Positions 883-42,686 of a DNA stretch of 64,000 bases are shown one piece after another. The position numbers and the translations under genes are program-made. Below the pieces are notes generated by a model that worked only from the letters and a program-made list of their open reading frames with translations, did not search any database and was not told where the DNA came from. Source of the stretch: a virus; the UHGV virus genome UHGV-0086135; one strand, 5' to 3'. Every line of letters begins with the position of its first letter. Position 1 is the stretch's first letter.

Positions 883-1344
883 ATGACTATCAACACAGAA
901 GTTTTTATCCGTCGAAATAAGCTTCGTCGTCACTTTGAGTCGGAGTTTCGTCAAATTAACAATGAGATTCGTGAGGCATCAAAAGCAGCAGGGGTCTCAT
1001 CGTTTCATCTAAAATATTCTCAGCATCTTCTTGATCGTGCAATTCAACGGGAGATTGATGAGACATATGTTTTTGAATTATTCCACAAAATAAAAGACCA
1101 TGTTTTAGAAGTTAATGAATTCCTGAGTATGCCTCCGCGTCCTGACATTGACGAGGATTTTATTGATGGGGTTGAATACCGTCCTGGACGTTTAGAAATC
1201 ACAGATGGAAATCTTTGGCTTGGATTTACAGTTTGTAAACCTAATGCGAAGTTCAAAGACCCGTCGCTTCAATGCAGGATGGCAATTATCAACAGTCGTC
1301 GTTTACCAGGAAAGGCTTCTAAAGCAGTAATTAAAACTCAATGA
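883..1344 (+). CDS. regB: RegB site-specific endoribonuclease
   Basis: 153 aa; sequence MTINTEVFIRRNKLRRHFESEF... matches my recollection of T4 RegB. Confidence 0.9.
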   Translation: MTINTEVFIRRNKLRRHFESEFRQINNEIREASKAAGVSSFHLKYSQHLLDRAIQREIDETYVFELFHKIKDHVLEVNEFLSMPPRPDIDEDFIDGVEYRPGRLEITDGNLWLGFTVCKPNAKFKDPSLQCRMAIINSRRLPGKASKAVIKTQ

Positions 1345-1351
1345 GGTAAGC

Positions 1352-1897
1352 ATGAGAAAAGCACTACTCGCTGGTCTATTGGCCATTTCAATGATGGCGC
1401 ATAGCTCCGAGCATACTTTCAGTAATGTCCAACTCGATAACATGCGTTACGCGTATCAATTCGGGGAACAATTTTCTAAGGATGGAAAATATAAAACACA
1501 CAAAAATATCCACAAGAGCGGATTAGGTCATATAATGGCTGCTATTTTATGGCAAGAAAGCTCTGCCGGAGTTAATTTAAAATCTAAACCAAAGCATCAT
1601 GCCTATGGAATGTTCCAAAATTATTTGCCTACTATGCGAGCAAGAGTTAAGGAACTTGGTTATAATATGACCGATGCTGAAATAAAAAGAATGTTGAATA
1701 AACGGTCCAATTCAGCTTCCTGGGCGTACATTGAACTTTCTTATTGGTTAAATATACATAAGGGCGATATAAGAAAGGCGATATCCTCTTATAATTCGGG
1801 ATGGAATGTTAAAGCAGGTTCTAAATATGCTTCTGAAGTCCTAGAAAAGGCTAATTACCTTAAAAATAATAAACTTTTGGAAATAGTAAATGACTAA
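1352..1897 (+). CDS. secreted protein with lytic-transglycosylase-like motif (vs.1 position)
   Basis: N-terminal signal peptide; ILWQESSAG...YGMFQN resembles SLT ES...GLMQ motif. Confidence 0.55.
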   Translation: MRKALLAGLLAISMMAHSSEHTFSNVQLDNMRYAYQFGEQFSKDGKYKTHKNIHKSGLGHIMAAILWQESSAGVNLKSKPKHHAYGMFQNYLPTMRARVKELGYNMTDAEIKRMLNKRSNSASWAYIELSYWLNIHKGDIRKAISSYNSGWNVKAGSKYASEVLEKANYLKNNKLLEIVND

Positions 1898-2231
1898 AAT
1901 TTTGGTTTTATGTATAGGATTAATTTCATTTTCTGTGTTAGCAGATACATCATATACTGAAATTAGAGAGTATGTAAACCGTACTGCCGCGGATTATTGT
2001 GGGAAAAATAAAGCATGCCAAGCTGAATTTGCGCAGAAATTAATATATGCATATAAAGACGGAGAAAGAGATAAATCAAGCAGATATAAAAATGATACAT
2101 TGTTAAAACGATATGCTAAAAAGTGGAATACCTTAGAATGTTCAGTTGCGGAGGAGAAAGATAAAGCCGCTTGTCATTCAATGGTTGACCGTTTAGTAGA
2201 TTCTTATAATCGAGGATTGAGTACTAGATGA
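1890..2231 (+). CDS. small secreted protein, 113 aa (vs position)
   Basis: Signal peptide MTKILVLCIGLISFSVLA; several Cys. Confidence 0.5.
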   Translation: MTKILVLCIGLISFSVLADTSYTEIREYVNRTAADYCGKNKACQAEFAQKLIYAYKDGERDKSSRYKNDTLLKRYAKKWNTLECSVAEEKDKAACHSMVDRLVDSYNRGLSTR

Positions 2232-2707
2232 TTGTAAAATATATCAAGGGCGATATTGTCGCCCTATTTCTTCAAGGTAATATTATTGCGCACGGGTGCA
2301 ATTGCTTTCACACAATGGGCTCTGGCGTAGCAGGTCAATTAGCAAGAGCCTATCCCAAAATTTTAGAAATAGATAAAACCACTACCGAGTACGGTTCTCG
2401 TGATAAATTAGGTGATATGTCTATTGTTTTTAAACATAGCCCTACGGGATTTGGTATATGCTATAACCTGTATACGCAATACGAACCGGGTCCTAATCTT
2501 GATTATGGTGCTTTAGTAAACTGCATGATAGAATTAAATCTACAGGCAGAAACCCTTTTGTTTAAACCAGTAATTTACATTCCACGTATAGGTTGCGGTA
2601 TTGCTGGCGGCGATTGGGATAAGGTTTCTAAATTAATCGACATGTTTACTCCTGATATTGATTTAATAGTGGTGGATTATGAAAGTACATTACCCGCATC
2701 CGTTTGA
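2228..2707 (+). CDS. macro-domain protein (ADP-ribose binding/hydrolase fold), tk.4 position
   Basis: AHGCNC...MGSGVAGQLA...IGCGIAGG motifs typical of macro domains. Confidence 0.65.
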   Translation: MIVKYIKGDIVALFLQGNIIAHGCNCFHTMGSGVAGQLARAYPKILEIDKTTTEYGSRDKLGDMSIVFKHSPTGFGICYNLYTQYEPGPNLDYGALVNCMIELNLQAETLLFKPVIYIPRIGCGIAGGDWDKVSKLIDMFTPDIDLIVVDYESTLPASV

Positions 2708-2891
2708 TCCTAAAAACAAAGTGGAAATTATTCGTCAATGGGAACGCATTTGCCGTACTAAATGCCCAATTAATAGTCCACATGATGTAGATAAAGACTA
2801 TATTGGAACATTCGTTGAATATACCTTTATTGATAAGAAAGGTCGTAAACAACATGTAGAAGAATATTGTTTAAAGGTTACATGGTTATGA
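2679..2891 (+). CDS. hypothetical protein, 70 aa
   Basis: ORF in tk-upstream small-gene run. Confidence 0.4.
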   Translation: MKVHYPHPFDPKNKVEIIRQWERICRTKCPINSPHDVDKDYIGTFVEYTFIDKKGRKQHVEEYCLKVTWL

Positions 2892-3094
2892 GCCAAACTA
2901 GTATTCTTAAAAATGCCCACTGCGAAAAGTGTGAATGGCCAGTTGTTTTTGCTTTATGTAATGATGAAATGACTTGTGATTTCGATTATTGGTGCTATTG
3001 TTCTAATAAAGGATGCATCAATCATAAAGGTGAAGGATTTTATTCAGGATTTTATCCTTATCCTGATTTCGTTAAAGAAGGTAAACCGAAATGA
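2888..3094 (+). CDS. Cys-rich small protein, 68 aa
   Basis: ATG overlapping previous stop (ATGA); CxxC pairs. Confidence 0.4.
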   Translation: MSQTSILKNAHCEKCEWPVVFALCNDEMTCDFDYWCYCSNKGCINHKGEGFYSGFYPYPDFVKEGKPK

Positions 3095-3264
3095 ATAGTT
3101 CTGAGTTACAATATGAAGTGTTATGTGAGCTTGATAATTTAATTGAACTCGCTGTCAATAAAGGTTTTGCCATTGGAATCGGTCAAAAAGATACTGGTCA
3201 TTTAACTATGGAAATATTTAAGCAAAAGCGAATTATTTTAAAACTCCTGGAAATTAATATATGA
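3091..3264 (+). CDS. hypothetical small protein, 57 aa
   Basis: ATGA-coupled start; not in ORF track (<60 aa). Confidence 0.35.
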   Translation: MNSSELQYEVLCELDNLIELAVNKGFAIGIGQKDTGHLTMEIFKQKRIILKLLEINI

Positions 3265-3446
3265 GTCTGAGTAAAGAACAAAAAGATAAATTGTTTGAGC
3301 TTATCCATGAACTTCTAGATGAGCATACAGAAGCAAACACCTTTTATGATGAATACGGCCCGCTATCTCCCGATCAGCAAGAAGAATTTGCTGATCGGTT
3401 TGATAAGAAAGAAAACGAATTAATAGCTTATGTGAATACGCTTTAA
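3261..3446 (+). CDS. hypothetical protein, 61 aa
   Basis: ATGA-coupled ORF immediately upstream of tk. Confidence 0.4.
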   Translation: MSLSKEQKDKLFELIHELLDEHTEANTFYDEYGPLSPDQQEEFADRFDKKENELIAYVNTL

Positions 3447-3455
3447 GAAGGTGAT

Positions 3456-4037
3456 ATGGCGAGTTTAATTTTTACTTACGCAGCAATGAATGCTGGAAAA
3501 TCTGCTTCTCTTTTGACTGCTGCACATAATTATAAAGAACGCGGAATGGGTGTATTAGTTCTTAAGCCTGCTATTGATACTCGTGATTCTGTCTGTGAAG
3601 TCGTTTCTCGCATTGGAATTAAGCAGGAAGCGAATATTATTACGGATGATATGGATATTTTTGAGTTCTATAAATGGGCTGAAGCACAAAAAGATATTCA
3701 TTGTGTATTTGTAGATGAAGCTCAGTTTTTAAAAACTGAACAGGTGCATCAATTAAGCCGAATTGTTGATACATATAATGTTCCTGTTATGGCTTATGGT
3801 CTAAGGACTGATTTCGCTGGAAAATTATTTGAAGGTTCTAAAGAACTTTTGGCGATCGCAGATAAACTTATTGAACTAAAAGCAGTTTGTCATTGTGGTA
3901 AAAAAGCGATTATGACAGCTCGATTAATGGAAGATGGAACACCAGTTAAAGAAGGTAATCAAATCTGTATTGGTGATGAAATTTATGTTTCTTTGTGTAG
4001 AAAACATTGGAATGAATTAACTAAAAAGCTCGGTTAG
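3456..4037 (+). CDS. tk: thymidine kinase
   Basis: 193 aa; P-loop NAGKSASLL and C-terminal Zn-finger Cys pattern of TK. Confidence 0.95.
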   Translation: MASLIFTYAAMNAGKSASLLTAAHNYKERGMGVLVLKPAIDTRDSVCEVVSRIGIKQEANIITDDMDIFEFYKWAEAQKDIHCVFVDEAQFLKTEQVHQLSRIVDTYNVPVMAYGLRTDFAGKLFEGSKELLAIADKLIELKAVCHCGKKAIMTARLMEDGTPVKEGNQICIGDEIYVSLCRKHWNELTKKLG

Positions 4038-4046
4038 TGCAAAAGT

Positions 4047-4054
4047 TATAAATA
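4047..4054 (+). promoter_or_regulatory. T4 late-promoter motif TATAAATA
   Basis: Exact TATAAATA ~26 nt upstream of ORF 4080. Confidence 0.4.
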
Positions 4055-4079
4055 GGTTTATCTAACTAAAGGGGTATAT

Positions 4080-4292
4080 ATGCTACAATTAACTGAAAAG
4101 CAACTTCGCAATCTTACTGTTCTTCAATTAGATGAAATTCGTAGGGAAGTTGGAAATATCATTTCAGCTTTGCGTCGAGAAGTATCACTCAACCAATCTC
4201 CGGCAGACTATACTAGATTGCGAAATTTTGAAAAATACCTTGATAAAGTTAAGGCCGTGCATCGGCATAAAGTAAATACAGGACAAAAATGA
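4080..4292 (+). CDS. hypothetical protein, 70 aa (rI.-1 position)
   Basis: ORF with SD between tk and rI. Confidence 0.5.
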
Positions 4293-24966: not shown

Positions 24967-26169
24967 ATGAAAGTATGCATTTTTATGGCTCGAGGTCTTG
25001 AAGGTTGCGGCGTAACTAAATTTTCTCTCGAGCAGCGTGATTGGTTTATTAAAAATGGTCATGAAGTAACTTTGGTTTATGCTAAAGATAAATCATTTAC
25101 CCGTAATTGCGCGCATGATTATAAATCATTTTCAATTCCGGTTTTATTGGCAAAAGAATACGATAAAACACTTAAGCTGGTAAATGATTGTGATATTCTA
25201 ATTATCAATTCAGTTCCTGCTACTTCAGTCGAAGAAGACACTATTAATAACTATAAAAAAATTATTGATAACATTAAACCTTCAGTTCGTGTTGTAGTTT
25301 ATCAACATGACCATTCTTCTCTTTCTTTGCGCCGAAATTTGGGATTAGAAGAAACTGTTCGTCGAGCTGATGTTATTTTTAGTCATTCTGATAATGGTGA
25401 TTTTAATAAAGTTTTGATGAAAGAATGGTATCCAGAAACAGTTTCTCTGTTTGATGATATTGAAGAAGCACCGACTGTATACAACTTTCAGCCTCCTATG
25501 GATATTGCGAAGGTTCGATCAACCTACTGGAAAGATGTTTCTGAAATTAATATGAATGTCAACCGTTGGATCGGTCGTACGACTACATGGAAAGGTTTTT
25601 ATCAGATGTTTGATTTTCACGAAAAACATCTTAAACCTGCGGGATTAAGTACTATTATGGAAGGTCTGGAACGTTCTCCAGCGTTCATTCCTATTAAAGA
25701 AAAAGGAATTCCATACGAATATTATCGTCTTCATCAAGTAGACCAAATTAAAATTGCTCCTAATTTGCCGACGCAAATTCTCGACCGTTATGTAAATAGC
25801 GAAATGCTTGAACGCATGAGTAAATCCGGATTTGGTTATCAGCTGAGTAAGTTGGATAAAAAATATCTACAACGTTCTTTAGAATATACTCATCTCGAGC
25901 TTGGTGCGTGTGGAACAATTCCGGTATTTTGGAAATCTACTGGCGAAAATTTAAAATTCCGTGTTGATAATACTCCGTTAATTTCTCATGATAGCGGTAT
26001 CGTTTGGTTTGATGAAAATGACATGGAATCAACATTTGAACGTATTAAAGAACTGTCATCTGACCGAGCTCTTTATGACCGTGAACGCGAAAAAGCTTAT
26101 GAATTTTTGTATCAGCATCAAGATTCAAGCTTCTGCTTTAAAGAACAGTTTGACATTATTACAAAATAA
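24967..26169 (+). CDS. agt: DNA alpha-glucosyltransferase
   Basis: 400 aa; near-identical to T4 alpha-gt as I recall (MARGLEGCGVTKFSLEQRDWF...). Confidence 0.95.
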   Translation: MKVCIFMARGLEGCGVTKFSLEQRDWFIKNGHEVTLVYAKDKSFTRNCAHDYKSFSIPVLLAKEYDKTLKLVNDCDILIINSVPATSVEEDTINNYKKIIDNIKPSVRVVVYQHDHSSLSLRRNLGLEETVRRADVIFSHSDNGDFNKVLMKEWYPETVSLFDDIEEAPTVYNFQPPMDIAKVRSTYWKDVSEINMNVNRWIGRTTTWKGFYQMFDFHEKHLKPAGLSTIMEGLERSPAFIPIKEKGIPYEYYRLHQVDQIKIAPNLPTQILDRYVNSEMLERMSKSGFGYQLSKLDKKYLQRSLEYTHLELGACGTIPVFWKSTGENLKFRVDNTPLISHDSGIVWFDENDMESTFERIKELSSDRALYDREREKAYEFLYQHQDSSFCFKEQFDIITK

Positions 26170-26208: not shown

Positions 26209-26349
26209 ATGATATTTCTTGGATATGTGATACTTTTTCTAGCGTTTTATCTGTTCACCAGAGCATGTTGGATTGGGTTCTTTAGCACTCCAGATGGATT
26301 TATTTCAATAATTTTATTTTGCATTTCAATGACGGTTCTTGATATATGA
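26209..26349 (+). CDS. small membrane peptide, 46 aa
   Basis: Two hydrophobic segments; ATGA-coupled to next ORF. Confidence 0.3.
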   Translation: MIFLGYVILFLAFYLFTRACWIGFFSTPDGFISIILFCISMTVLDI

Positions 26350-26969
26350 AAAAATATATAACTTATTTAACAATATATAGTGGAGATAAGCTTCCTCCTT
26401 TTTATATTGGATCTACGTCTTTAGATAGGCATTTAGCTGGATATCATGGTTCAGTTTTATCTAAAAAGTATAAGAAAATTTATAATAAAGAGCTTTCAGA
26501 TAATCCTCACTTATTTGATTCATGCATTTTAGCTGAATTTGATACGCGTGAAGAAGCTATTAAATGCGAGTTATATTATCAACGATTGCATGATGCAGTT
26601 AAAAATCCATTATTCTTTAATATGTCATATGCTGCTCCAAAAGGTTCATTTGGAAGAGATAATAAAGGACAAAATCATCCATTATATGGTTCTCATAATT
26701 GTAAAGGAAATATACATTCACATGATCCATTAACAGGAAAATCTGCCTTTTTGCCTTATATTCCAGAAGGTTATGTAAAAGGAAGGTCAAATAAATTTAA
26801 AGCTTCATCACATAATAAAGGTAAAAAATGGTATAATAACGGAGTTAAGCAAATGTTATGTCATGAACCTCCTGGTCCTGAATGGACAAAAGGAAAAATT
26901 AAAGAACTGGTTTCAAAAGCAGCTAAATTAGGATGGAAAAGACACCATGAAAATACTAAACTTGGGTGA
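26346..26969 (+). CDS. GIY-YIG homing endonuclease (Seg-like)
   Basis: N-terminal YITYL...FYIGST GIY-YIG-type motif; repeated G..H...K NUMOD-like motifs. Confidence 0.6.
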   Translation: MKKYITYLTIYSGDKLPPFYIGSTSLDRHLAGYHGSVLSKKYKKIYNKELSDNPHLFDSCILAEFDTREEAIKCELYYQRLHDAVKNPLFFNMSYAAPKGSFGRDNKGQNHPLYGSHNCKGNIHSHDPLTGKSAFLPYIPEGYVKGRSNKFKASSHNKGKKWYNNGVKQMLCHEPPGPEWTKGKIKELVSKAAKLGWKRHHENTKLG

Positions 26970-33501: not shown

Positions 33502-36198
33502 ATGAAAGAATTTTATATCTCTATCGAAACAGTCGGAAATAATATTGTTGAGCGTTATATTGATGAAAACGGAAAGGAACGTACCCGTGAAGTAGAATAT
33601 CTTCCGACTATGTTTAGGCATTGTAAGGAAGAGTCAAAATACAAAGACATTTATGGTAAAAATTGCGCTCCTCAAAAATTTCCATCAATGAAAGATGCGC
33701 GAGACTGGATGAAGCGAATGGAAGACATCGGTCTCGAAGCTCTCGGTATGAACGATTTTAAACTCGCTTATATCAGTGATACATATGGTTCAGAAATTGT
33801 TTATGACCGAAAATTTGTTCGTGTGGCTAACTGTGACATTGAGGTTACTGGCGATAAATTTCCTGACCCAATGAAAGCAGAATATGAAATTGATGCTATC
33901 ACTCATTATGATTCAATTGACGATCGTTTTTACGTCTTTGATTTATTGAATTCAATGTACGGTTCAGTATCAAAATGGGATGCAAAGCTAGCTGCTAAGC
34001 TTGACTGTGAAGGTGGTGATGAAGTTCCTCAAGAAATTCTTGACCGAGTAATTTATATGCCATTCGATAATGAGCGTGATATGCTCATGGAATATATTAA
34101 TCTCTGGGAACAGAAACGACCTGCTATTTTTACCGGTTGGAATATTGAGGGATTTGACGTTCCGTATATCATGAATCGCGTTAAAATGGTTCTCGGTGAA
34201 CGCAGTATGAAACGCTTCTCTCCAATCGGTCGAGTAAAATCTAAACTAATTCAAAATATGTACGGTAGCAAAGAAATTTATTCTATTGATGGCGTATCTA
34301 TTCTTGATTATTTAGATTTGTACAAGAAATTCGCATTTACTAATTTGCCATCATTCTCTTTGGAATCAGTTGCTCAACATGAAACCAAAAAAGGTAAATT
34401 GCCGTACGATGGTCCTATTAATAAACTTCGTGAGACTAATCATCAACGATACATTAGTTATAACATCATTGACGTAGAATCAGTTCAAGCAATTGATAAA
34501 ATTCGTGGGTTTATCGATCTAGTTTTAAGTATGTCTTATTACGCTAAAATGCCTTTTTCTGGTGTAATGAGCCCTATTAAAACTTGGGATGCTATTATTT
34601 TTAACTCACTGAAAGGTGAACATAAGGTTATTCCTCAACAAGGTTCGCACGTTAAACAAAGTTTTCCGGGTGCATTTGTATTTGAACCTAAACCAATTGC
34701 TCGTCGATATATTATGAGTTTTGACTTGACGTCTCTGTATCCGAGCATTATTCGTCAGGTTAACATTAGTCCTGAGACTATTCGTGGGCAGTTTAAAGTT
34801 CATCCAATTCATGAATATATTGCAGGAACAGCTCCTAAACCGAGTGATGAATATTCTTGTTCTCCGAATGGATGGATGTATGATAAGCACCAAGAAGGTA
34901 TCATTCCAAAGGAAATCGCTAAAGTATTTTTCCAGCGTAAAGATTGGAAAAAGAAAATGTTCGCTGAAGAAATGAATGCCGAAGCTATTAAAAAGATTAT
35001 TATGAAAGGTGCAGGGACTTGCTCAACTAAACCAGAAGTTGAACGATATGTTAAGTTTAGCGATGATTTCTTAAACGAATTATCGAATTACACCGAATCT
35101 GTTCTTAACAGTCTGATTGAAGAATGTGAAAAAGCTGCTACACTTGCTAACACAAATCAGCTGAACCGTAAAATTCTTATTAACAGTCTTTATGGTGCTC
35201 TTGGTAATATTCATTTCCGTTACTATGATTTGCGAAATGCTACTGCTATCACAATTTTCGGTCAAGTCGGTATTCAGTGGATTGCTCGCAAAATTAATGA
35301 ATATCTAAATAAAGTGTGTGGAACTAATGGTGAAGATTTCATCGCAGCAGGTGATACTGATTCGGTATATGTTTGTGTAGATAAAGTAATTGAAAAAGTA
35401 GGTCTTGACCGCTTTAAAGAACAAAATGATTTAGTTGAATTCATGAATCAGTTTGGTAAGAAAAAGATGGAACCTATGATTGATGTTGCATATCGTGAGT
35501 TATGTGATTATATGAATAACCGCGAGCATCTGATGCATATGGACCGTGAAGCTATTTCTTGCCCTCCGCTTGGTTCAAAGGGTGTTGGTGGATTTTGGAA
35601 AGCGAAAAAACGTTATGCTCTGAACGTTTATGATATGGAAGATAAGCGATTTGCTGAACCACATCTAAAAATCATGGGTATGGAAACTCAGCAGAGTTCA
35701 ACACCAAAAGCAGTACAAGAAGCTCTCGAAGAAAGTATTCGTCGTATTCTTCAGGAAGGCGAAGAGTCTGTCCAAGAATACTACAAGAACTTTGAGAAAG
35801 AATATCGTCAACTTGACTATAAAGTTATTGCTGAAGTAAAAACTGCGAACGATATAGCGAAATATGATGATAAAGGTTGGCCAGGATTTAAATGTCCGTT
35901 CCATATTCGTGGTGTGCTAACTTATCGTCGAGCTGTTAGCGGTTTAGGTGTAGCTCCAATTTTGGATGGAAATAAGGTAATGGTTCTTCCATTACGTGAA
36001 GGAAATCCATTTGGTGACAAGTGCATTGCTTGGCCATCAGGCACAGAACTTCCAAAAGAAATTCGTTCTGATGTACTGTCTTGGATTGACTACTCAACTT
36101 TGTTCCAAAAATCGTTTGTTAAACCGCTTGCGGGCATGTGTGAATCGGCGGGTATGGACTATGAAGAAAAAGCTTCGTTAGACTTCCTGTTTGGCTGA
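33502..36198 (+). CDS. 43: DNA polymerase gp43 (family B)
   Basis: 898 aa; exonuclease and polymerase motifs incl. YGDTDS. Confidence 0.95.
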   Translation: MKEFYISIETVGNNIVERYIDENGKERTREVEYLPTMFRHCKEESKYKDIYGKNCAPQKFPSMKDARDWMKRMEDIGLEALGMNDFKLAYISDTYGSEIVYDRKFVRVANCDIEVTGDKFPDPMKAEYEIDAITHYDSIDDRFYVFDLLNSMYGSVSKWDAKLAAKLDCEGGDEVPQEILDRVIYMPFDNERDMLMEYINLWEQKRPAIFTGWNIEGFDVPYIMNRVKMVLGERSMKRFSPIGRVKSKLIQNMYGSKEIYSIDGVSILDYLDLYKKFAFTNLPSFSLESVAQHETKKGKLPYDGPINKLRETNHQRYISYNIIDVESVQAIDKIRGFIDLVLSMSYYAKMPFSGVMSPIKTWDAIIFNSLKGEHKVIPQQGSHVKQSFPGAFVFEPKPIARRYIMSFDLTSLYPSIIRQVNISPETIRGQFKVHPIHEYIAGTAPKPSDEYSCSPNGWMYDKHQEGIIPKEIAKVFFQRKDWKKKMFAEEMNAEAIKKIIMKGAGTCSTKPEVERYVKFSDDFLNELSNYTESVLNSLIEECEKAATLANTNQLNRKILINSLYGALGNIHFRYYDLRNATAITIFGQVGIQWIARKINEYLNKVCGTNGEDFIAAGDTDSVYVCVDKVIEKVGLDRFKEQNDLVEFMNQFGKKKMEPMIDVAYRELCDYMNNREHLMHMDREAISCPPLGSKGVGGFWKAKKRYALNVYDMEDKRFAEPHLKIMGMETQQSSTPKAVQEALEESIRRILQEGEESVQEYYKNFEKEYRQLDYKVIAEVKTANDIAKYDDKGWPGFKCPFHIRGVLTYRRAVSGLGVAPILDGNKVMVLPLREGNPFGDKCIAWPSGTELPKEIRSDVLSWIDYSTLFQKSFVKPLAGMCESAGMDYEEKASLDFLFG

Positions 36199-36211
36199 TA
36201 GAATAAATCTA

Positions 36212-36232
36212 GGGACCTCCGGGTCCCTTTTT
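36212..36232 (+). terminator. rho-independent terminator
   Basis: gggacc-tccg-ggtccc + ttttt. Confidence 0.75.
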
Positions 36233-36316
36233 CATACAAGTAATATAAATTCTATACTTAAGAAAAATAGATGATTCTAGGTCCTGTAAATTCATTAAAA
36301 ATTTTTTCACAAAACT

Positions 36317-36346
36317 ATTTACATCCCTGTTCTTCCGTGGTACTAT
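36317..36346 (+). promoter_or_regulatory. T4-type early promoter with conserved leader cassette
   Basis: ATTTAC 36317-36322, TACTAT 36341-36346; leader identical to 8.6 kb and 63.6 kb copies. Confidence 0.6.
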
Positions 36347-36380
36347 ACAACTATCAACTGATACGGATTTGGAGAATAAA

Positions 36381-36638
36381 ATGAAAATTGTTTATGGTTG
36401 TTTAGCAGCGTGTTTAGTTGCATTAGCAGTTGTTCTAGTTGCATTAGCAGCTGTTCCATTTATTGATATTGAAAATGACACTCAGAATGTGATTGAATCT
36501 AATACTGTTATTCACATGAATGGTAAAGTATCAACAAAAATTGATGATAATCTTCATATGAATACTAATGGAACGCTTGGTGTTCAATTAGGTAATACCT
36601 GTGTAAGCACTACTGGAGTAATTACTACTTGTATTTGA
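36381..36638 (+). CDS. small membrane protein, 85 aa (imm.1 position)
   Basis: ATG after repeated leader; hydrophobic N-terminus with internal 15-bp direct repeat. Confidence 0.5.
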   Translation: MKIVYGCLAACLVALAVVLVALAAVPFIDIENDTQNVIESNTVIHMNGKVSTKIDDNLHMNTNGTLGVQLGNTCVSTTGVITTCI

Positions 36639-36648
36639 GGAAATTATT

Positions 36649-37029
36649 ATGAAAATTGCTATTTTGGTTATTGCATTAGGTCTTACTGGCTGTGTAGCTC
36701 AAGGACCAGTAGTAAATCAGTCTGATGCAGGAAAAATTGTAAATTGTTCAAGCAAATTTTATAATCCTAATGTTAAGTGTTATAAAGAAGCTCCAAAACA
36801 GACAGTAGAACAAATGCAGGCGAATTTTGACGAAGCTATTCGTCCAGATGAATCTGCTCAAGCATATCGTAATTCAGATGTAATTACACGCGAAGAAAAA
36901 ATTGAAAACTACTGTGCTGAACTTTGGGCTAATTGGGCTAATAATTACCAATGGCGTACCGGTAAAAATGCTCCGATGGAGTATGTAGTGAATTCTTATA
37001 ATTCATGTGTAAAAAATTTGACTAAGTGA
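36649..37029 (+). CDS. predicted lipoprotein, 126 aa
   Basis: Signal peptide with lipobox LTGC. Confidence 0.55.
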   Translation: MKIAILVIALGLTGCVAQGPVVNQSDAGKIVNCSSKFYNPNVKCYKEAPKQTVEQMQANFDEAIRPDESAQAYRNSDVITREEKIENYCAELWANWANNYQWRTGKNAPMEYVVNSYNSCVKNLTK

Positions 37030-37036
37030 GGAAAAC

Positions 37037-37288
37037 ATGGAAACTTTAGTAGCAGGTTCAATTTTTATGGTTTTAGTTTCAGGCGTGTTGGCTATTATTA
37101 TATACATGCTTCCGTGGTTCATCGCCTTGATGCGTGGGTCAAAATCGACAGTAGGAATCTTTTTCACATCTTTACTGTTTAATTGGTCAATTATTGGTTG
37201 GTTTATTACATTTATTTGGTCAATTGCGGGTGAAACTAAAAAATCTGCACAGCAAAACCAAGTAATTATCATCAGAGAGAAGGAATGA
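37037..37288 (+). CDS. imm: superinfection immunity membrane protein Imm
   Basis: 83 aa two-helix membrane protein at conserved position upstream of gene 42. Confidence 0.75.
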   Translation: METLVAGSIFMVLVSGVLAIIIYMLPWFIALMRGSKSTVGIFFTSLLFNWSIIGWFITFIWSIAGETKKSAQQNQVIIIREKE

Positions 37289-37434
37289 AAAGCAAAATTT
37301 TAGCAGTATTGCTTTTAATTTTGATGATTATAATAAGTATATACTATAGCGTAACGGTTCCTTGTATGATTCCGACACTTATTATAGGTTGGGGTTTATT
37401 ACTGTTACAAGTTAAATATGAATGCATCAATTGA
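37285..37434 (+). CDS. small membrane peptide, 49 aa
   Basis: ATGA-coupled to imm; hydrophobic; not in ORF track. Confidence 0.35.
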   Translation: MKSKILAVLLLILMIIISIYYSVTVPCMIPTLIIGWGLLLLQVKYECIN

Positions 37435-37441
37435 GGTTTAA

Positions 37442-38182
37442 ATGATTAACGATTATATGACAGTTGAAGAAATCCGTCTTGATTTGGGGCTTGCATTAAA
37501 GGAAAAAGATTTCGTAGTTGATAAAACTGGTGTTAAAACTATTGAAATTATTGGTGCATCATTTGTAGCAGATGAACCGTTTATTTTTGGCGCTCTTAAT
37601 GATGAATACATTCAACGTGAACTTGAATGGTATAAATCTAAAAGTTTGTTTGTTAAAGATATTCCGGGTGAAACACCGAAGATTTGGCAGCAGGTAGCAT
37701 CTTCTAAAGGCGAAATTAACTCGAATTATGGTTGGGCCATCTGGTCAGAAGATAACTATGCCCAGTATGATATGTGTTTAGCTGAACTTGGTCAAAATCC
37801 TGATTCTCGACGTGGTATCATGATTTATACTCGTCCATCTATGCAGTTTGACTACAATAAAGATGGTATGTCAGATTTCATGTGTACGAATACCGTACAG
37901 TATCTGATTCGTGACAAGAAAGTCAATGCAGTTGTTAATATGAGAAGCAATGACTGCTGGGCAGGCTATCGTAATGATTATGCATGGCAAAAATACGTAC
38001 TAGATAAATTAGTATCTGATTTGAATGCAGGCGACCCATCGCGGCAATATAAAGCAGGTTCTATTATATGGAACGTTGGAAGTCTTCATGTGTACGAAAA
38101 TCAGTTTTATTTAGTTGACCATTGGTGGAACACTGGTGAAACTCATATTGCTAAAAAGGATTATACTGGAAAATGGAAGTAA
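37442..38182 (+). CDS. 42: dCMP hydroxymethylase gp42
   Basis: 246 aa; thymidylate-synthase-like fold; conserved position. Confidence 0.95.
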   Translation: MINDYMTVEEIRLDLGLALKEKDFVVDKTGVKTIEIIGASFVADEPFIFGALNDEYIQRELEWYKSKSLFVKDIPGETPKIWQQVASSKGEINSNYGWAIWSEDNYAQYDMCLAELGQNPDSRRGIMIYTRPSMQFDYNKDGMSDFMCTNTVQYLIRDKKVNAVVNMRSNDCWAGYRNDYAWQKYVLDKLVSDLNAGDPSRQYKAGSIIWNVGSLHVYENQFYLVDHWWNTGETHIAKKDYTGKWK

Positions 38183-38814
38183 ATGTGCCACATGTTTATA
38201 AGTATAAACATCCTAAAACTAAAAAGTGGTATATAGGAAGTCATGATGGTCACAACCCAAATTATGATGGTTCGGGTGTAGTTTGGCAACATGCTAAAAA
38301 GAAATATGGAATAAAATCCTTTAATAAAGAAATATTATATGAAGGACCAATGTTTAGACAGGTTGAAGAAATTATTTTAACTTGTTTAGATGCTGCTAAT
38401 TGTCCGGATTCATATAATTTAAAGAATGAAGCATGGGGAGGAAGTTTTCCAGGCAAATTAAATGGAATGTACGGTAAAAAACTATCTCCAGAAGAAAGAT
38501 ATAAGTGCGGAAATGCCTTTCGTGGAATCAAGCGTCCTGATCATTCTAAAAGAATGAAAGGCGAAGGTAATCCAATGTATGGTAAAAATGAGCAGGCATA
38601 TGGAATTATAAATCGAGCAAAGGAAAATTCTGGTAAAACTTATGAAGAAATTTTTGGCGCAGAAAAAGCTAAAATAATTAAAGAAACGATGTCTAAAAAT
38701 CGTAAAGGAAAACCTCATAATTTGATAGAAAAAATATGTCCGCATTGCGGACTAAAAGGACGTGGGCCAAATATGACAAGATACCATTTTGACAAATGTA
38801 AGGCACTTAAATGA
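38173..38814 (+). CDS. GIY-YIG homing endonuclease (Seg-like)
   Basis: N-terminal VYKYKHPKTKKWYIGSHDG motif; repeated GxxMYGK / KGKPHN NUMOD-like motifs. Confidence 0.6.
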   Translation: MEVNVPHVYKYKHPKTKKWYIGSHDGHNPNYDGSGVVWQHAKKKYGIKSFNKEILYEGPMFRQVEEIILTCLDAANCPDSYNLKNEAWGGSFPGKLNGMYGKKLSPEERYKCGNAFRGIKRPDHSKRMKGEGNPMYGKNEQAYGIINRAKENSGKTYEEIFGAEKAKIIKETMSKNRKGKPHNLIEKICPHCGLKGRGPNMTRYHFDKCKALK

Positions 38815-39653
38815 TTCAATTCGTAATTCCAAGTTATCAGCGTGTCGGGGCAGTTTCTGCCCTTGATATGTTTCCGACTGATTATGAACCCCATATTGTA
38901 GTGCGTGAACATGAAGAAAAAGCTTATTATGATGCCTATGGGTCTAGAGCTAAAATTATAACTATTCCTGATGATGTAAACGGAATTGCCGGTACTCGTA
39001 AAGCAATTACTGATATGTATGCAGGTCAACGAATCTGGATGATTGACGACGATACTACTATTCGTATGAGTTCAATGCGAAAAAGAGATGACCGTCGTTG
39101 TGTAGATAAAGTCAATCAATTAACCCGTGAACAGTTCTATGAATTGATTCAATACGTTGAAGATGCCATGGATTGTGGGTATTATCATGGTCATGCTCGC
39201 CTACCAATTTTTAAAATTACTTCATCTTGGGGTAATTATCGTGAAAATTCATATGGATTCACGAATACATGGTATGACCTCGGAAAACTTACGACAGAAC
39301 AAATTGGGTATGGAAAAATTGATTTATGCGAAGATATGTATGCATTTCTCAATTTAATTAATCAAGGTTATCCGCATTTGGCCCTGTTCAAATATCTGGT
39401 TGTATCTGGAAAAGCACAAGCTCCTGGCGGATGTAGTTCAATTCGTAGTAATTCAAAACATAATAGAGCTCTTGAGCAAATCAACAGAGAGTTTCCAGAG
39501 CAAGCTCGTTGGAAAACATCGAATATCGAAAAGAGAAAATCGTTGGGTGAAGAAGACGAGCCATTAAAAGTTCTTCGCATGTGTGTTTCGCGCAAAGAAA
39601 AATCAGAAGCGTTTCATAAGTTTAATGCTATTCATCCAATAGCAGTTGATTAA
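38811..39653 (+). CDS. putative GT-A-like glycosyltransferase (DxD motif) in the beta-gt slot
   Basis: N-terminal VIPSYQR strand, WMIDDDTT DxD motif; between gene 42 and uvsX. Confidence 0.5.
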   Translation: MIQFVIPSYQRVGAVSALDMFPTDYEPHIVVREHEEKAYYDAYGSRAKIITIPDDVNGIAGTRKAITDMYAGQRIWMIDDDTTIRMSSMRKRDDRRCVDKVNQLTREQFYELIQYVEDAMDCGYYHGHARLPIFKITSSWGNYRENSYGFTNTWYDLGKLTTEQIGYGKIDLCEDMYAFLNLINQGYPHLALFKYLVVSGKAQAPGGCSSIRSNSKHNRALEQINREFPEQARWKTSNIEKRKSLGEEDEPLKVLRMCVSRKEKSEAFHKFNAIHPIAVD

Positions 39654-39677
39654 TGCCTAAATTTATTGTGTTATAAT
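39652..39677 (+). promoter_or_regulatory. promoter upstream of uvsX (extended -10 TGtTATAAT; imperfect MotA box)
   Basis: TATAAT 39672-39677 preceded by TG; AATGCCTAA box-like element. Confidence 0.45.
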
Positions 39678-39730
39678 TACTTTATCTTTAACCAGTGAGG
39701 AAAATATAATGATGCCTATGGAAAAAATGA

Positions 39731-40912
39731 ATGTCTATTGCAGATTTAAAATCCCGTTTGATTAAAGCTTCCACTTCTAAAATGACTGCTGAACTGACTA
39801 CATCTAAATTCTTTAATGAAAAGGATGTAATCCGTACAAAAATCCCAATGCTTAATATCGCTATTTCTGGTGCGATTGATGGTGGTATGCAGTCTGGTTT
39901 AACCATTTTTGCAGGTCCTTCTAAACACTTTAAATCAAATATGTCTTTGACTATGGTTGCGGCGTATTTGAACAAATATCCTGACGCGGTATGTCTGTTT
40001 TATGATAGCGAATTTGGTATTACTCCAGCTTATTTGCGATCCATGGGAGTTGACCCGGAACGAGTAATTCATACACCAATTCAGTCAGTTGAACAGCTGA
40101 AAATTGATATGGTGAATCAGCTTGAAGCTATTGAGCGTGGTGAAAAAGTTATTGTATTCATCGACTCAATCGGTAATATGGCTTCTAAGAAAGAAACGGA
40201 AGATGCCTTAAATGAAAAATCTGTGGCAGATATGACTCGTGCTAAATCACTGAAGTCATTATTCCGTATTGTTACTCCTTATTTTAGTATTAAAAACATT
40301 CCATGTGTTGCGGTTAACCATACAATTGAAACAATTGAAATGTTTAGTAAAACCGTGATGACAGGTGGTACAGGCGTAATGTATTCGGCTGATACTGTAT
40401 TCATTATCGGTAAGCGCCAGATTAAAGATGGTTCTGATCTTCAGGGGTATCAATTTGTTCTAAATGTAGAAAAATCTCGTACCGTTAAAGAAAAAAGTAA
40501 ATTCTTTATTGATGTTAAATTTGACGGTGGTATCGATCCTTATTCTGGATTGTTAGATATGGCTCTTGAATTAGGATTTGTGGTAAAACCTAAAAATGGC
40601 TGGTATGCTCGTGAATTTCTTGACGAAGAAACCGGCGAGATGATTCGCGAAGAAAAATCTTGGCGTGCAAAAGATACCAATTGCACTACATTCTGGGGTC
40701 CTTTATTTAAGCATCAACCATTCCGAGATGCTATTAAACGTGCTTATCAGTTAGGTGCTATTGATAGTAATGAAATTGTTGAAGCTGAAGTTGATGAATT
40801 GATTAACTCAAAGGTTGAAAAATTTAAATCTCCAGAAAGTAAAAGTAAATCAGCAGCTGATTTAGAAACTGACCTAGATCAGTTAAGTGATATGGAAGAA
40901 TTTAATGAATAA
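39731..40912 (+). CDS. uvsX: recombinase UvsX (RecA-like)
   Basis: 393 aa; Walker A GPSKHFKS; conserved position. Confidence 0.95.
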   Translation: MSIADLKSRLIKASTSKMTAELTTSKFFNEKDVIRTKIPMLNIAISGAIDGGMQSGLTIFAGPSKHFKSNMSLTMVAAYLNKYPDAVCLFYDSEFGITPAYLRSMGVDPERVIHTPIQSVEQLKIDMVNQLEAIERGEKVIVFIDSIGNMASKKETEDALNEKSVADMTRAKSLKSLFRIVTPYFSIKNIPCVAVNHTIETIEMFSKTVMTGGTGVMYSADTVFIIGKRQIKDGSDLQGYQFVLNVEKSRTVKEKSKFFIDVKFDGGIDPYSGLLDMALELGFVVKPKNGWYAREFLDEETGEMIREEKSWRAKDTNCTTFWGPLFKHQPFRDAIKRAYQLGAIDSNEIVEAEVDELINSKVEKFKSPESKSKSAADLETDLDQLSDMEEFNE

Positions 40913-41249
40913 AGATGATTTAGATTTAGATCTAGAAATTATCGATGAATCCCCCTCTTCGGAGGGGGAAGAAGAAAGAAAAGAACGTCTTTTTAATGAA
41001 TCTCTTAAGATAATTAAATCTGCCATGGAAAATGTTATCCAGGAGATTGTCATTAAACTAGAAGACGGTTCTACACACATTGTGTATGTGACAAAATTAG
41101 ATTGGGTTGATGGAAAAGTCGTAATGGACTTTGCTGTTCTTGACCAAGAAAGAAAAGCTGAGTTAGCTCCTCATGTAGAAAAATGTATTACAATGCAACT
41201 ACAAGATGCATTTAATAAAAGGTCAAAGAAAAAATTTAAATTCTTTTAA
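40905..41249 (+). CDS. 40: head vertex assembly chaperone gp40
   Basis: ATG overlapping uvsX stop; position between uvsX and gene 41. Confidence 0.65.
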   Translation: MNKDDLDLDLEIIDESPSSEGEEERKERLFNESLKIIKSAMENVIQEIVIKLEDGSTHIVYVTKLDWVDGKVVMDFAVLDQERKAELAPHVEKCITMQLQDAFNKRSKKKFKFF

Positions 41250-41258
41250 GGAGTAAGT

Positions 41259-42686
41259 GTGGTAGAAATTATTCTTTCTCATCTCATATTTGATCAAGCT
41301 TATTTTTCAAAAGTTTGGCCATATATGGATTCAGAATATTTTGAAAGTGGTCCAGCTAAAAATACATTCAAATTAATTAAATCTCATGTTAATGAATACC
41401 ATAGCGTTCCATCTATTAATGCGTTAAATGTTGCATTAGAAAATAGTTCATTTACTGAAACAGAATATTCTGGTGTAAAAACACTTATTTCGAAACTAGC
41501 CGATTCTCCAGAAGACCACAGCTGGTTAGTAAAAGAAACAGAAAAATATGTTCAGCAAAGGGCGATGTTTAATGCTACGTCTAAAATAATTGAAATTCAA
41601 ACTAATGCTGAGCTTCCTCCGGAAAAACGAAATAAGAAAATGCCAGATGTAGGTGCTATTCCTGACATCATGCGTCAAGCATTATCAATTTCATTTGATA
41701 GTTACGTTGGTCATGATTGGATGGATGACTACGAAGCACGTTGGCTATCTTATATGAATAAAGCTCGTAAGGTTCCATTTAAACTCAAAATTCTAAATAA
41801 AATTACTAAAGGCGGAGCTGAAACTGGAACACTGAACGTTTTAATGGCTGGTGTTAACGTTGGTAAGTCATTAGGATTGTGTTCATTGGCAGCAGATTAT
41901 TTGCAGCTCGGACATAATGTTCTTTACATTTCCATGGAAATGGCAGAAGAAGTCTGTGCTAAGCGTATTGATGCTAATATGCTTGATGTTTCTCTTGATG
42001 ACATTGATGATGGGCATATTTCTTACGCTGAGTATAAAGGAAAAATGGAAAAATGGCGTGAGAAATCTACTCTCGGTCGTTTAATCGTTAAACAGTATCC
42101 TACTGGTGGAGCAGACGCTAATACATTCAGGTCTCTCTTGAATGAATTGAAGCTCAAGAAGAATTTTGTTCCAACAATCATTATTGTTGACTATCTGGGT
42201 ATTTGTAAATCTTGCCGCATTAGAGTTTATTCAGAAAATAGTTACACAACTGTTAAAGCTATCGCAGAGGAATTGCGTGCTCTTGCTGTTGAAACTGAAA
42301 CTGTTCTTTGGACTGCAGCACAGGTTGGTAAACAAGCTTGGGATTCTTCTGATGTTAACATGAGCGATATCGCAGAATCTGCCGGTCTTCCAGCAACAGC
42401 CGATTTTATGCTTGCTGTCATTGAAACCGAGGAGTTAGCAGCTGCTGAACAACAACTTATTAAGCAAATCAAATCACGATACGGTGATAAGAATAAATGG
42501 AATAAGTTTTTGATGGGTGTTCAAAAAGGAAATCAGAAATGGGTAGAAATTGAACAAGATTCTACTCCAACTGAAGTGAACGAAGTAGCAGGTTCACAGC
42601 AGATTCAGGCTGAACAGAATCGCTATCAAAGAAACGAATCTGCTCGAGCCCAGTTAGATGCTTTGGCAAATGAATTAAAATTTTAG
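41259..42686 (+). CDS. 41: replicative DNA helicase gp41 (DnaB-like)
   Basis: 475 aa, GTG start MVEIILSHLIF; Walker A GVNVGKS. Confidence 0.95.
   Translation: MVEIILSHLIFDQAYFSKVWPYMDSEYFESGPAKNTFKLIKSHVNEYHSVPSINALNVALENSSFTETEYSGVKTLISKLADSPEDHSWLVKETEKYVQQRAMFNATSKIIEIQTNAELPPEKRNKKMPDVGAIPDIMRQALSISFDSYVGHDWMDDYEARWLSYMNKARKVPFKLKILNKITKGGAETGTLNVLMAGVNVGKSLGLCSLAADYLQLGHNVLYISMEMAEEVCAKRIDANMLDVSLDDIDDGHISYAEYKGKMEKWREKSTLGRLIVKQYPTGGADANTFRSLLNELKLKKNFVPTIIIVDYLGICKSCRIRVYSENSYTTVKAIAEELRALAVETETVLWTAAQVGKQAWDSSDVNMSDIAESAGLPATADFMLAVIETEELAAAEQQLIKQIKSRYGDKNKWNKFLMGVQKGNQKWVEIEQDSTPTEVNEVAGSQQIQAEQNRYQRNESARAQLDALANELKF

Follow-up and report, generated by a model that had tools for sequence, protein, structure and literature searches.

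A T6-type glucosyltransferase and an optional Seg-type endonuclease gene between gene 42 and uvsX of a Tequatrovirus

Genes of the slot between gene 42 and uvsX

The window, a 64,000-nt stretch of viral DNA (UHGV-0086135), belongs to a T2/T6-type Tequatrovirus, and all features described here lie on its plus strand. Gene 42, encoding a 246-aa dCMP hydroxymethylase (37442-38182; PF00303 at 7e-15), and the gene for the uvsX recombinase (39731-40912; PF21134 at 4.7e-39 and PF00154 at 2.4e-11) border a slot that in T4 has the order 42, b-gt (351 aa), segA, uvsX; the original prediction had beta-gt, and its size of about 350 aa, right for this T4 slot. It had also placed two ORFs in the slot, and the ORF list indeed gives one of 213 aa (38173-38814) and one of 280 aa (38811-39653). 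At its start the former overlaps with the 3' end of gene 42, and at its stop with the start of the latter (ATGA). Elsewhere in the window, the alpha-glucosyltransferase gene (alpha-gt, 24967-26169) is intact, as had been claimed, with a 400-aa ORF that matches phrog_2888 at E 8e-222. The same genes are annotated in dozens of deposited genomes that are 97-98.7% identical across the full region, and both genes of the slot are ordinary for T2/T6-like phages, the transferase being already known and the endonuclease optional.

The 280-aa ORF starts MIQFVIPSYQRVG and contains RIWMIDDDTTIRM; its translation includes the VIPSYQR strand and the WMIDDDTT motif to which attention had been drawn. The comparison with the T6 and T4 enzymes proposed in the original prediction separated the two: the T6 enzyme (NC_054907) matches the protein with 98.6% identity over 280 aa, whereas T4 b-gt could not be aligned with it (BLASTP E 2.2, with chance segments of 8-35 residues only). 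Identity to the corresponding enzyme of phage Solly is 100%, the match to PF20691 (Pfam TAGT) scores 38.9 bits against a cut-off of 27.5 (protein residues 3-207, profile positions 2-205 of 205), and phrog_842 matches at 6.4e-89; a sequence search of PDB chains produced chance matches only (E > 1). By these sequence matches, the protein is the known beta-glucosyl-HMC-alpha-glucosyltransferase (TAGT). That was one of two alternatives originally offered; the other, a different sugar transferase, is at odds with near-identity to the T6 enzyme and full identity to that of Solly. The T2/T6 gene was reportedly first cloned by Winkler and Rueger (Nucleic Acids Res 1993), and TAGT is said to have been defined by Iyer et al. 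in 2013.

An AF2 model of TAGT, built on a shallow alignment (the first homologue search returned only 11 proteins) and of moderate pLDDT (72.5), matches GT-A enzymes, with the acidic DxD motif following a beta-strand, and does not show the two Rossmann domains of a GT-B fold; the GT-A fold suggested from the motif is thus borne out in the predicted model. The motif is a DDD at residues 79-81, at the end of a predicted strand (E74-79), and its three Asp do not vary among aligned relatives as distant as 32% identity. An AF3 model of T6 TAGT is likewise GT-A, placed as a sister group to GT2 (PMC13216743). The position of TAGT in T6-like Tequatroviruses, syntenic with T4 beta-GT, and its GT-A fold were both published in 2026.

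The 213-aa ORF, from its sequence and predicted fold, is a free-standing Seg-type GIY-YIG homing endonuclease gene (hereafter seg), in line with its original designation, for which a match to phrog_314 ("homing endonuclease", 1.8e-31), similarity to SegA, and motif and fold evidence all speak. A GIY-YIG domain occupies approximately residues 7-85 and has the fold of that catalytic domain; NUMOD3-like repeats take up the middle, and an invariant CCHC motif (C189, C192, H205, C209) lies at the C-terminus. Of 36 relatives, 31-36 keep the GIY-YIG residues (Y9, Y20-I-G22, E65, N82), although the first motif reads PHVY against a family consensus of G(Y/F)VY, and no equivalent of Arg R27 of I-TevI was found in the protein. 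Profile matches are mixed: Pfam GIY-YIG (PF01541) did not match the 213-aa protein itself, for which NUMOD3 was the only Pfam match, below its cut-off, and TIGR01453 matched with E 1.5e-5 but only 25.1 bits, under its cut-off of 56, while several homologues do carry PF01541 or PF19835. A profile of four Seg proteins gave chance matches only against the PDB. A scan of 37200-39800 found no enrichment of sigma-70 promoter-like sites and no T4 late-promoter motif (TATAAATA) near seg. No publication describing a seg gene at this site, between gene 42 and the gene for the transferase, turned up in the literature searches.

A 632-nt insertion and a recoded gene 42

Alignment with T6 and T4, together with junction arithmetic, delimits seg as a 632-nt insertion (38179-38810) exactly between gene 42 and the TAGT gene, its boundaries ambiguous by 2 nt (AA). 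In the T6 arrangement, which has no seg, the gene 42 stop overlaps the TAGT start; the insertion maintains the ATGA coupling to TAGT. This insertion occurs in 78-79 records, compared to approximately 472 Tequatrovirus records with TAGT at at least 95% identity.

The gp42 of the window is 92.7-99% identical to that of T4, T6 and relatives, with Cys148 and Asp179 present, and the differences that go with seg are confined to one part of the gene. A scan of IMG/VR with TAGT yielded just 5 loci, and the linkage was accordingly examined in an alignment of four seg+ and six seg- sequences, supplemented with database-wide identity counts. In the alignment, 36 fixed differences fall within nt 502-738 of gene 42, against none in nt 1-501 and none in TAGT. 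Nearly half of them (17 of 36) lie in patch 1 (gene 42 nt 502-528; 37943-37969), where gp42 residues 172-176 change from VVFGF to CWAGY and the Arg168 and Ser169 codons are altered synonymously. Patch 2 (nt 654-659; 38095-38100) changes residues 219-221 from SRH to ENQ, immediately after His216-Val-Tyr218. The two patches are 125 nt apart and cannot both be one recognition site. We infer that the whole seg-linked tract, the final 240 nt of gene 42 (37943-38182), is a co-conversion tract.

This 3' end of gene 42 is bimodal among 492 phage records, with 88 at 90% identity or above and 404 at 80-90%. Two artificial chimeric queries retrieved no single-patch recombinant from approximately 490 records (best full-length identity 93-94%), and because no record with one recoded patch was found, the two patches are inseparable in these data. 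About eight seg-less records (e.g. PD112) do have both recoded patches, but with the extreme 3' end of the seg-less type. The linkage also extends to a second genus: in Klebsiella Jiaodavirus, a seg 70% identical to ours occupies the same site and is accompanied by the same recoding (CWAG, NQ). There, the seg+ phage Mexia has CWAGY and QNQ, as compared to VVFGY and ERH in the seg-less KP1, and phage GF, which has a seg remnant, has CWAGY at patch 1.

Characterized Seg enzymes of T4 target a neighboring gene, uvsX in the case of SegA (PMC2988022). A homing target and its immunity allele are typically marked by recoding that travels with the endonuclease gene, and we regard patches 1 and 2 as candidate Seg target or immunity sites, with cleavage predicted. 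In a mixed infection, Seg would cut a seg-less gene 42 near codons 168-176 and/or 218-221, and the break would be repaired from the seg+ genome, so that the 3' end of gene 42, recoded and cut-resistant, would be copied, in most cases together with seg. Seg-less records with both patches recoded are expected if such repair sometimes ends before seg. Against this, linkage of the patches to seg could reflect hitch-hiking of donor sequence, not immunity.

We put at about even the chance of a more specific form of this homing model, in which seg is active but uncharacterized, its target codons lie beside active-site residues of gp42 (168-176, between Arg168/Ser169 and Asp179, and/or 218-221, after His216/Tyr218), and seg+ phages of two genera escape self-cleavage through recoding of an essential, still functional enzyme. 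If that were so, mixed infections would exclude the gene 42-to-TAGT region of T2, T4 and T6-type competitors.

An unlikely competing explanation is that seg is a decaying or domesticated remnant without homing, along with which neutral donor polymorphisms hitch-hiked into gene 42. The PHVY departure from the family consensus, the missing Pfam GIY-YIG match, the lack of a detected promoter of its own and a deletion through seg in one Klebsiella phage record would all suit decay, yet the ORF is intact and at least 99% identical in 74 records, and it retains Y9, Y20, G22, E65, N82 and the CCHC motif. Neutrality of the gene 42 differences is likewise difficult to reconcile with their distribution: in Tequatrovirus both patches stay fixed while homogenization with seg-less phages has reached the sequence between them and upstream of them, single-patch recombinants are absent, and the second genus has the same amino-acid recoding within gene 42 sequence that is otherwise only ~60-80% identical.

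The new element here is thus a seg gene present as a 632-nt insertion that travels with a recoded gene 42 3' end. It is a modest point, but it offers a testable case of a free-standing endonuclease that may target active-site codons of dCMP hydroxymethylase, and recoded gp42 is in itself a natural four-residue variant of a core strand of that enzyme.

Independence of seg from TAGT, and the expected DNA modification

The original prediction further held that the endonuclease may have mobilized the transferase cassette. This does not agree with the distribution of the two genes: TAGT occupies the slot without seg in T6, Solly and approximately 390 other records, and in Karamvirus CC31 and Serratia phage SP1, also without seg, a tandem of TAGT and beta-gt fills the slot. 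We conclude from these sequence comparisons that seg is most probably a later, separate 632-nt insertion and not part of a TAGT cassette. Import could in principle have worked, since T4 has a seg-less, presumably sensitive gene 42 allele, repair of a break in it from a seg+ donor could copy seg and TAGT through to uvsX, and "islands" flanked by homing endonuclease genes have been described in other phages (PMC10448857). That Seg carried TAGT into the beta-gt slot, with the pair moving as one unit, is nonetheless improbable and was rejected in view of the many seg-less TAGT loci. No seg-linked substitutions were found in TAGT DNA, TAGT alleles are not tied to seg, and the identical TAGT protein also occurs in seg-less loci; PD112 pairs TAGT with a T4-type segA instead; and the CC31 and SP1 tandem suggests differential loss, not import.

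Regarding the DNA itself, the genome encodes both the hmC synthase (gene 42) and the acceptor-making alpha-gt, each intact. By analogy with T6, gp42 would produce hydroxymethyl-dCMP, the source of the hmC that is later glucosylated; alpha-GT would add alpha-glucose to hmC in DNA, creating the acceptor for TAGT; and TAGT would take another glucose from UDP-glucose and attach it through a beta-1,6 linkage, yielding alpha-gentiobiosyl-hmC. Because that linkage is beta, an inverting mechanism is likely for TAGT. DNA of phage Solly, analyzed by HPLC/MS, has approximately one-third 5-hmdC and two-thirds alpha-gentiobiosyl-mdC, and no beta-glucosyl-hmC (PMC13390438). We would accordingly expect hmC, alpha-glucosyl-hmC and alpha-gentiobiosyl-hmC in the present phage, and no beta-glucosyl-hmC. 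Gentiobiosylation differs widely between phages that share the gene, however (~5% in T2 and ~72% in T6; PMC13390438), so that the exact ratio cannot be read from sequence. The modification pattern unlike that of T4 that had been anticipated is therefore probable, but it would be the long-known T6-type gentiobiosyl-hmC and not a new one.

We give almost no credence to use of another sugar or acceptor, which would make the modification differ from those of T4 and T6 alike. The function of this exact phage's enzyme is predicted, and relatives of TAGT are known from phages that have neither alpha- nor beta-GT, a sign that the family is not tied to one reaction (PMC13216743), but the enzyme is nearly identical to that of T6 and identical to that of Solly, whose DNA has alpha-gentiobiosyl-hmC, and alpha-gt and gene 42 are both present and intact.

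The explanation as a whole, a T6-type TAGT accompanied by an optional Seg for which cleavage, exact target and homing are predicted, appears to us highly probable; this analysis itself established the identities and folds, the boundaries of the insertion and the linkage of alleles. For the biology of DNA modification it carries little weight: the literature already documents the enzyme with its fold, its location in the T4 beta-GT slot, and gentiobiosyl-hmC. The practical gain is correct annotation of a phage expected to carry T6-type DNA, a pattern that determines sensitivity to defenses such as GmrSD/BrxU, Brig1 and McrBC.

Comparison with known systems

The transferase shares with T2/T6 TAGT its 280-aa length class, its slot downstream of gene 42 and directly upstream of uvsX, its partners gene 42 and alpha-gt, and a GT-A fold with DDD (PMC13216743; PMC13390438). 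Relative to T6 there is no substantive difference in the enzyme; only the seg that separates gene 42 from the transferase gene sets the two loci apart. In T4 this slot, flanked by gene 42 and uvsX, encodes beta-GT, which also draws on UDP-glucose to form a beta linkage on a modified cytosine of DNA. The two enzymes nevertheless have no sequence similarity (E 2.2), and TAGT has a GT-A fold in its predicted model, in contrast to the GT-B fold of T4 beta-GT (PDB 1JG7). Their acceptors differ as well, alpha-glucosyl-hmC for TAGT as compared to hmC for T4 beta-GT.

Seg belongs to the same family as T4 SegA (32% identity over 167 aa, E 5e-9), and both genes are free-standing, optional, situated in the glucosyltransferase slot and co-oriented with their neighbors. 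They take opposite sides of the transferase gene, however, with seg between gene 42 and TAGT and segA between b-gt and uvsX. The predicted target of Seg is gene 42, whereas SegA cuts in uvsX; moreover, the CCHC motif at the C-terminus of Seg has no counterpart in SegA in the alignment. As compared to I-TevI, the endonuclease of the T4 td intron, Seg is free-standing, not intron-encoded, has a predicted target, and matches the TIGR01453 family model below threshold.

A T6-type transferase between gene 42 and uvsX

The ORF list for 35500–42500 runs entirely on the plus strand, with gene 43 (33502–36198) and small imm-region ORFs followed by gene 42 (37442–38182; 246 aa), seg (38173–38814; 213 aa), the TAGT ORF (38811–39653; 280 aa), and uvsX (39731–40912), then genes 40 and 41. 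In the corresponding place, T4 has the order 42, b-gt (351 aa), segA, uvsX. A full-length alpha-glucosyltransferase (400 aa; phrog_2888, E 8e-222) is encoded at 24967–26169. The 280-aa protein begins with MIQFVIPSYQRVG and contains RIWMIDDDTTIRM; on ORF layout, motifs, and alpha-gt, the ORF list and T4 comparison bear out the original prediction in every detail. Separately, a 450-nt spacer (36199–36648) lies between gene 43 and imm.1, as compared to only about 182 nt in T4 and T6; within it, ORF 36369–36638 encodes a small hydrophobic protein (78–89 aa; MKIVYGCLAACLVALAVVLVALAAV..) that is annotated “hypothetical” in JK23 and Solly.

The 280-aa protein matches Pfam PF20691 (TET-associated glycosyltransferase) across the entire profile, exceeding the gathering score, and PHROG 842 “beta-glucosyl-HMC-alpha-glucosyltransferase” (6e-89). 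With it, tblastn retrieves 689 phage records, about 472 at ≥95% identity; the T6 TAGT is 98.6% and that of phage Solly 100% identical. Its DDD motif (79–81) comes after a strand at 74–79 and is invariant in relatives as distant as 32% identity. A sequence search of the PDB found no relative, and the comparison with T4 beta-GT proposed as a check showed no similarity (E 2.2).

Published work has shown that the TAGT product is 5-gentiobiosyl-methylcytosine, that T6 TAGT as modelled with AF3 has a GT-A fold and forms a sister group to GT2, and that an alpha- or beta-GT is paired with a TAGT in most phages (PMC13216743). A 2026 AEM paper places the TAGT of T6-like Tequatroviruses “at the position syntenic with” T4 beta-GT, and reports HPLC/MS of Solly and six relatives: about one-third 5-hmdC, about two-thirds alpha-gentiobiosyl-mdC, and no beta-glucosyl-mdC (PMC13390438). 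The suggested mass spectrometry has thus in effect already been done, on a phage with an identical TAGT. Because of these T6 and Solly data and that identity, the first alternative offered, a T2/T6-type beta-glucosyl-HMC-alpha-glucosyltransferase, is right. Modification in the window phage is expected to differ from that of T4, as foreseen, but to follow the classical T6 type and not a novel one. Dozens of deposited Tequatrovirus genomes match the entire 2.6-kb region at 97–98.7% identity and carry annotations for the same genes; the finding and its main interpretation hold up, yet what they describe is already known and annotated in many genomes. We also observe a G+C-rich hairpin with a T-rich tail (38847–38863, plus strand; GGGGCAG-TTT-CTGCCCT), 37 nt into the TAGT coding sequence, that is terminator-like by consensus scan and has the same sequence in T6.

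An optional Seg-type endonuclease

PHROG 314 (homing endonuclease) matches the 213-aa protein at 1.8e-31, T4 SegA aligns at 32% identity across 167 aa (E 5e-9), and TIGR01453 (group I intron endonuclease) falls under the cut-off (E 1.5e-5). The Pfam GIY-YIG model gives no direct match, while PF01541 or PF19835 is found in some of 69 database relatives. A 36-sequence alignment shows no variation at Y20, G22, N82, C189, C192, H205, and C209, and hardly any at Y9 and E65. These profile and SegA matches, with the conserved residues, mark it as a predicted GIY-YIG endonuclease of the Seg type that bears a CCHC motif at its C-terminus. Edgell et al. 2010 (PMC2988022) do not have it among the T4 seg genes they list, and a literature search for this Seg found no paper. 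Annotations of the gene in deposited genomes are “site-specific intron-like DNA endonuclease”, “putative homing endonuclease”, “hypothetical”, or “SegD”, a name that was probably transferred; the gene is itself uncharacterised but belongs to a familiar class.

In T6, gene 42 and TAGT overlap at the stop codon of the one and the start codon of the other (..TGGAAATGATTCAA..). The window has an additional 632 nt (38179–38810) between TGGAA and ATGATTCAA, which give gene 42 a new stop and retain the ATGA overlap with TAGT. At ≥95% identity, seg occurs in 78 phage records, as compared to about 472 with TAGT, and is therefore optional. A second Seg-like ORF (26346–26969, plus strand; 207 aa, N-terminus ..YLTIYSGDKLPPFYIGS..) separates alpha-gt from gene 47, its end overlapping the gene 47 start; both glucosyltransferase genes thus have a homing-endonuclease-type neighbour. 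This ORF matches phrog_10820 (1e-94) and phrog_314 (5e-18) and is likewise optional, with about 69 phage records at ≥90% identity.

Seg-linked recoding of gene 42

We now report that gene 42, encoding dCMP hydroxymethylase (gp42), is recoded in phages with seg. Four seg-bearing sequences (the window, JK23, vB_SsoM_113, and one IMG/VR contig) were compared with six that lack seg (T6, T4, and four contigs); the 36 nucleotide differences fixed between the two sets in this gene all fall in nt 502–738, and none in nt 1–501. One cluster (nt 502–528) changes residues 172–176 from VVFGF to CWAGY, with synonymous changes at the Arg168 and Ser169 codons; the other (nt 654–659) changes residues 219–221 from SRH to ENQ. 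Both adjoin conserved residues (Ser169 to Asp179, and His216-Val-Tyr218; Cys148 and Asp179 are confirmed at those positions), which we take to be catalytic or substrate-binding from the T4 enzyme and thymidylate synthase. The database-wide distribution for the final 238 nt of gene 42 is bimodal: 88 records share ≥90% identity with the window allele and 404 share 80–90%. About eight seg-less records (among them PD112, CE1, CJY920, T4_ev151, BYEP01, ERS-1, and EO1) combine both patches with an extreme 3′ end of the seg-less type; a database search for single-patch records found none.

The same pattern appears in Jiaodavirus. Klebsiella phage Mexia has a seg gene of 70% identity in the same position, with CWAGY and QNQ in gp42, while seg-less KP1 has VVFGY and ERH; the first 480 nt of their gene 42 are near-identical (92–100% per 60-nt window). 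Klebsiella phage GF, in which no more than a remnant of seg is left, has CWAGY. In its partial-genome record (vB_KpnM_GF), a deletion at about 2440–2600 starts near nt 640 of gene 42 and reaches into seg, sparing only the final 30 or so seg codons, and the annotated gp42 stops at 214 aa, without the His216/Tyr218 region, which could reflect faulty assembly or a defective gene 42.

Mobilisation and homing

The suggestion that the endonuclease mobilised the transferase cassette meets contrary evidence. A T4-type recipient could, in mechanistic terms, have its b-gt replaced through seg, but this finds no support: the slot holds TAGT in hundreds of seg-less phages, T6 and Solly among them; no TAGT differences are fixed between seg-bearing and seg-less sequences, there being no seg-linked allele, and one seg-less contig encodes a TAGT identical to the window's; Escherichia phage PD112 has TAGT with a T4-type segA on its other side; and in Enterobacter phage CC31, a Karamvirus (1067–3704 of its record), and Serratia phage SP1 (30–3740), the interval from gene 42 to uvsX contains both a TAGT homologue and a beta-glucosyltransferase gene, arranged in tandem. 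There is thus room for both genes in the slot, which suggests that two residents were differentially retained or lost rather than brought in by seg; T4 and T6 may each have lost a different one.

The seg and gene 42 pattern in two genera matches, as judged from sequence, the footprint that free-standing homing endonucleases classically leave. The Seg target would lie within the conserved neighbour gene 42, the endonuclease-bearing genome would carry a resistant allele, and a co-conversion tract would join target and seg; cleavage and homing are what we infer from this pattern. The PD112 mosaic (2008–4257 of its record), with both recoded patches, no seg, TAGT, a segA homologue about 98% identical to T4 SegA, and uvsX, shows the immunity-type allele circulating in the absence of the endonuclease gene, and segA adjoining TAGT as well. 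T4 SegA/uvsX, SegF/56, and SegG/32 behave in the same way, with the target in the neighbouring gene (PMC2988022). A putative Seg target in gene 42, with a recoded dCMP hydroxymethylase, is a small and testable addition.
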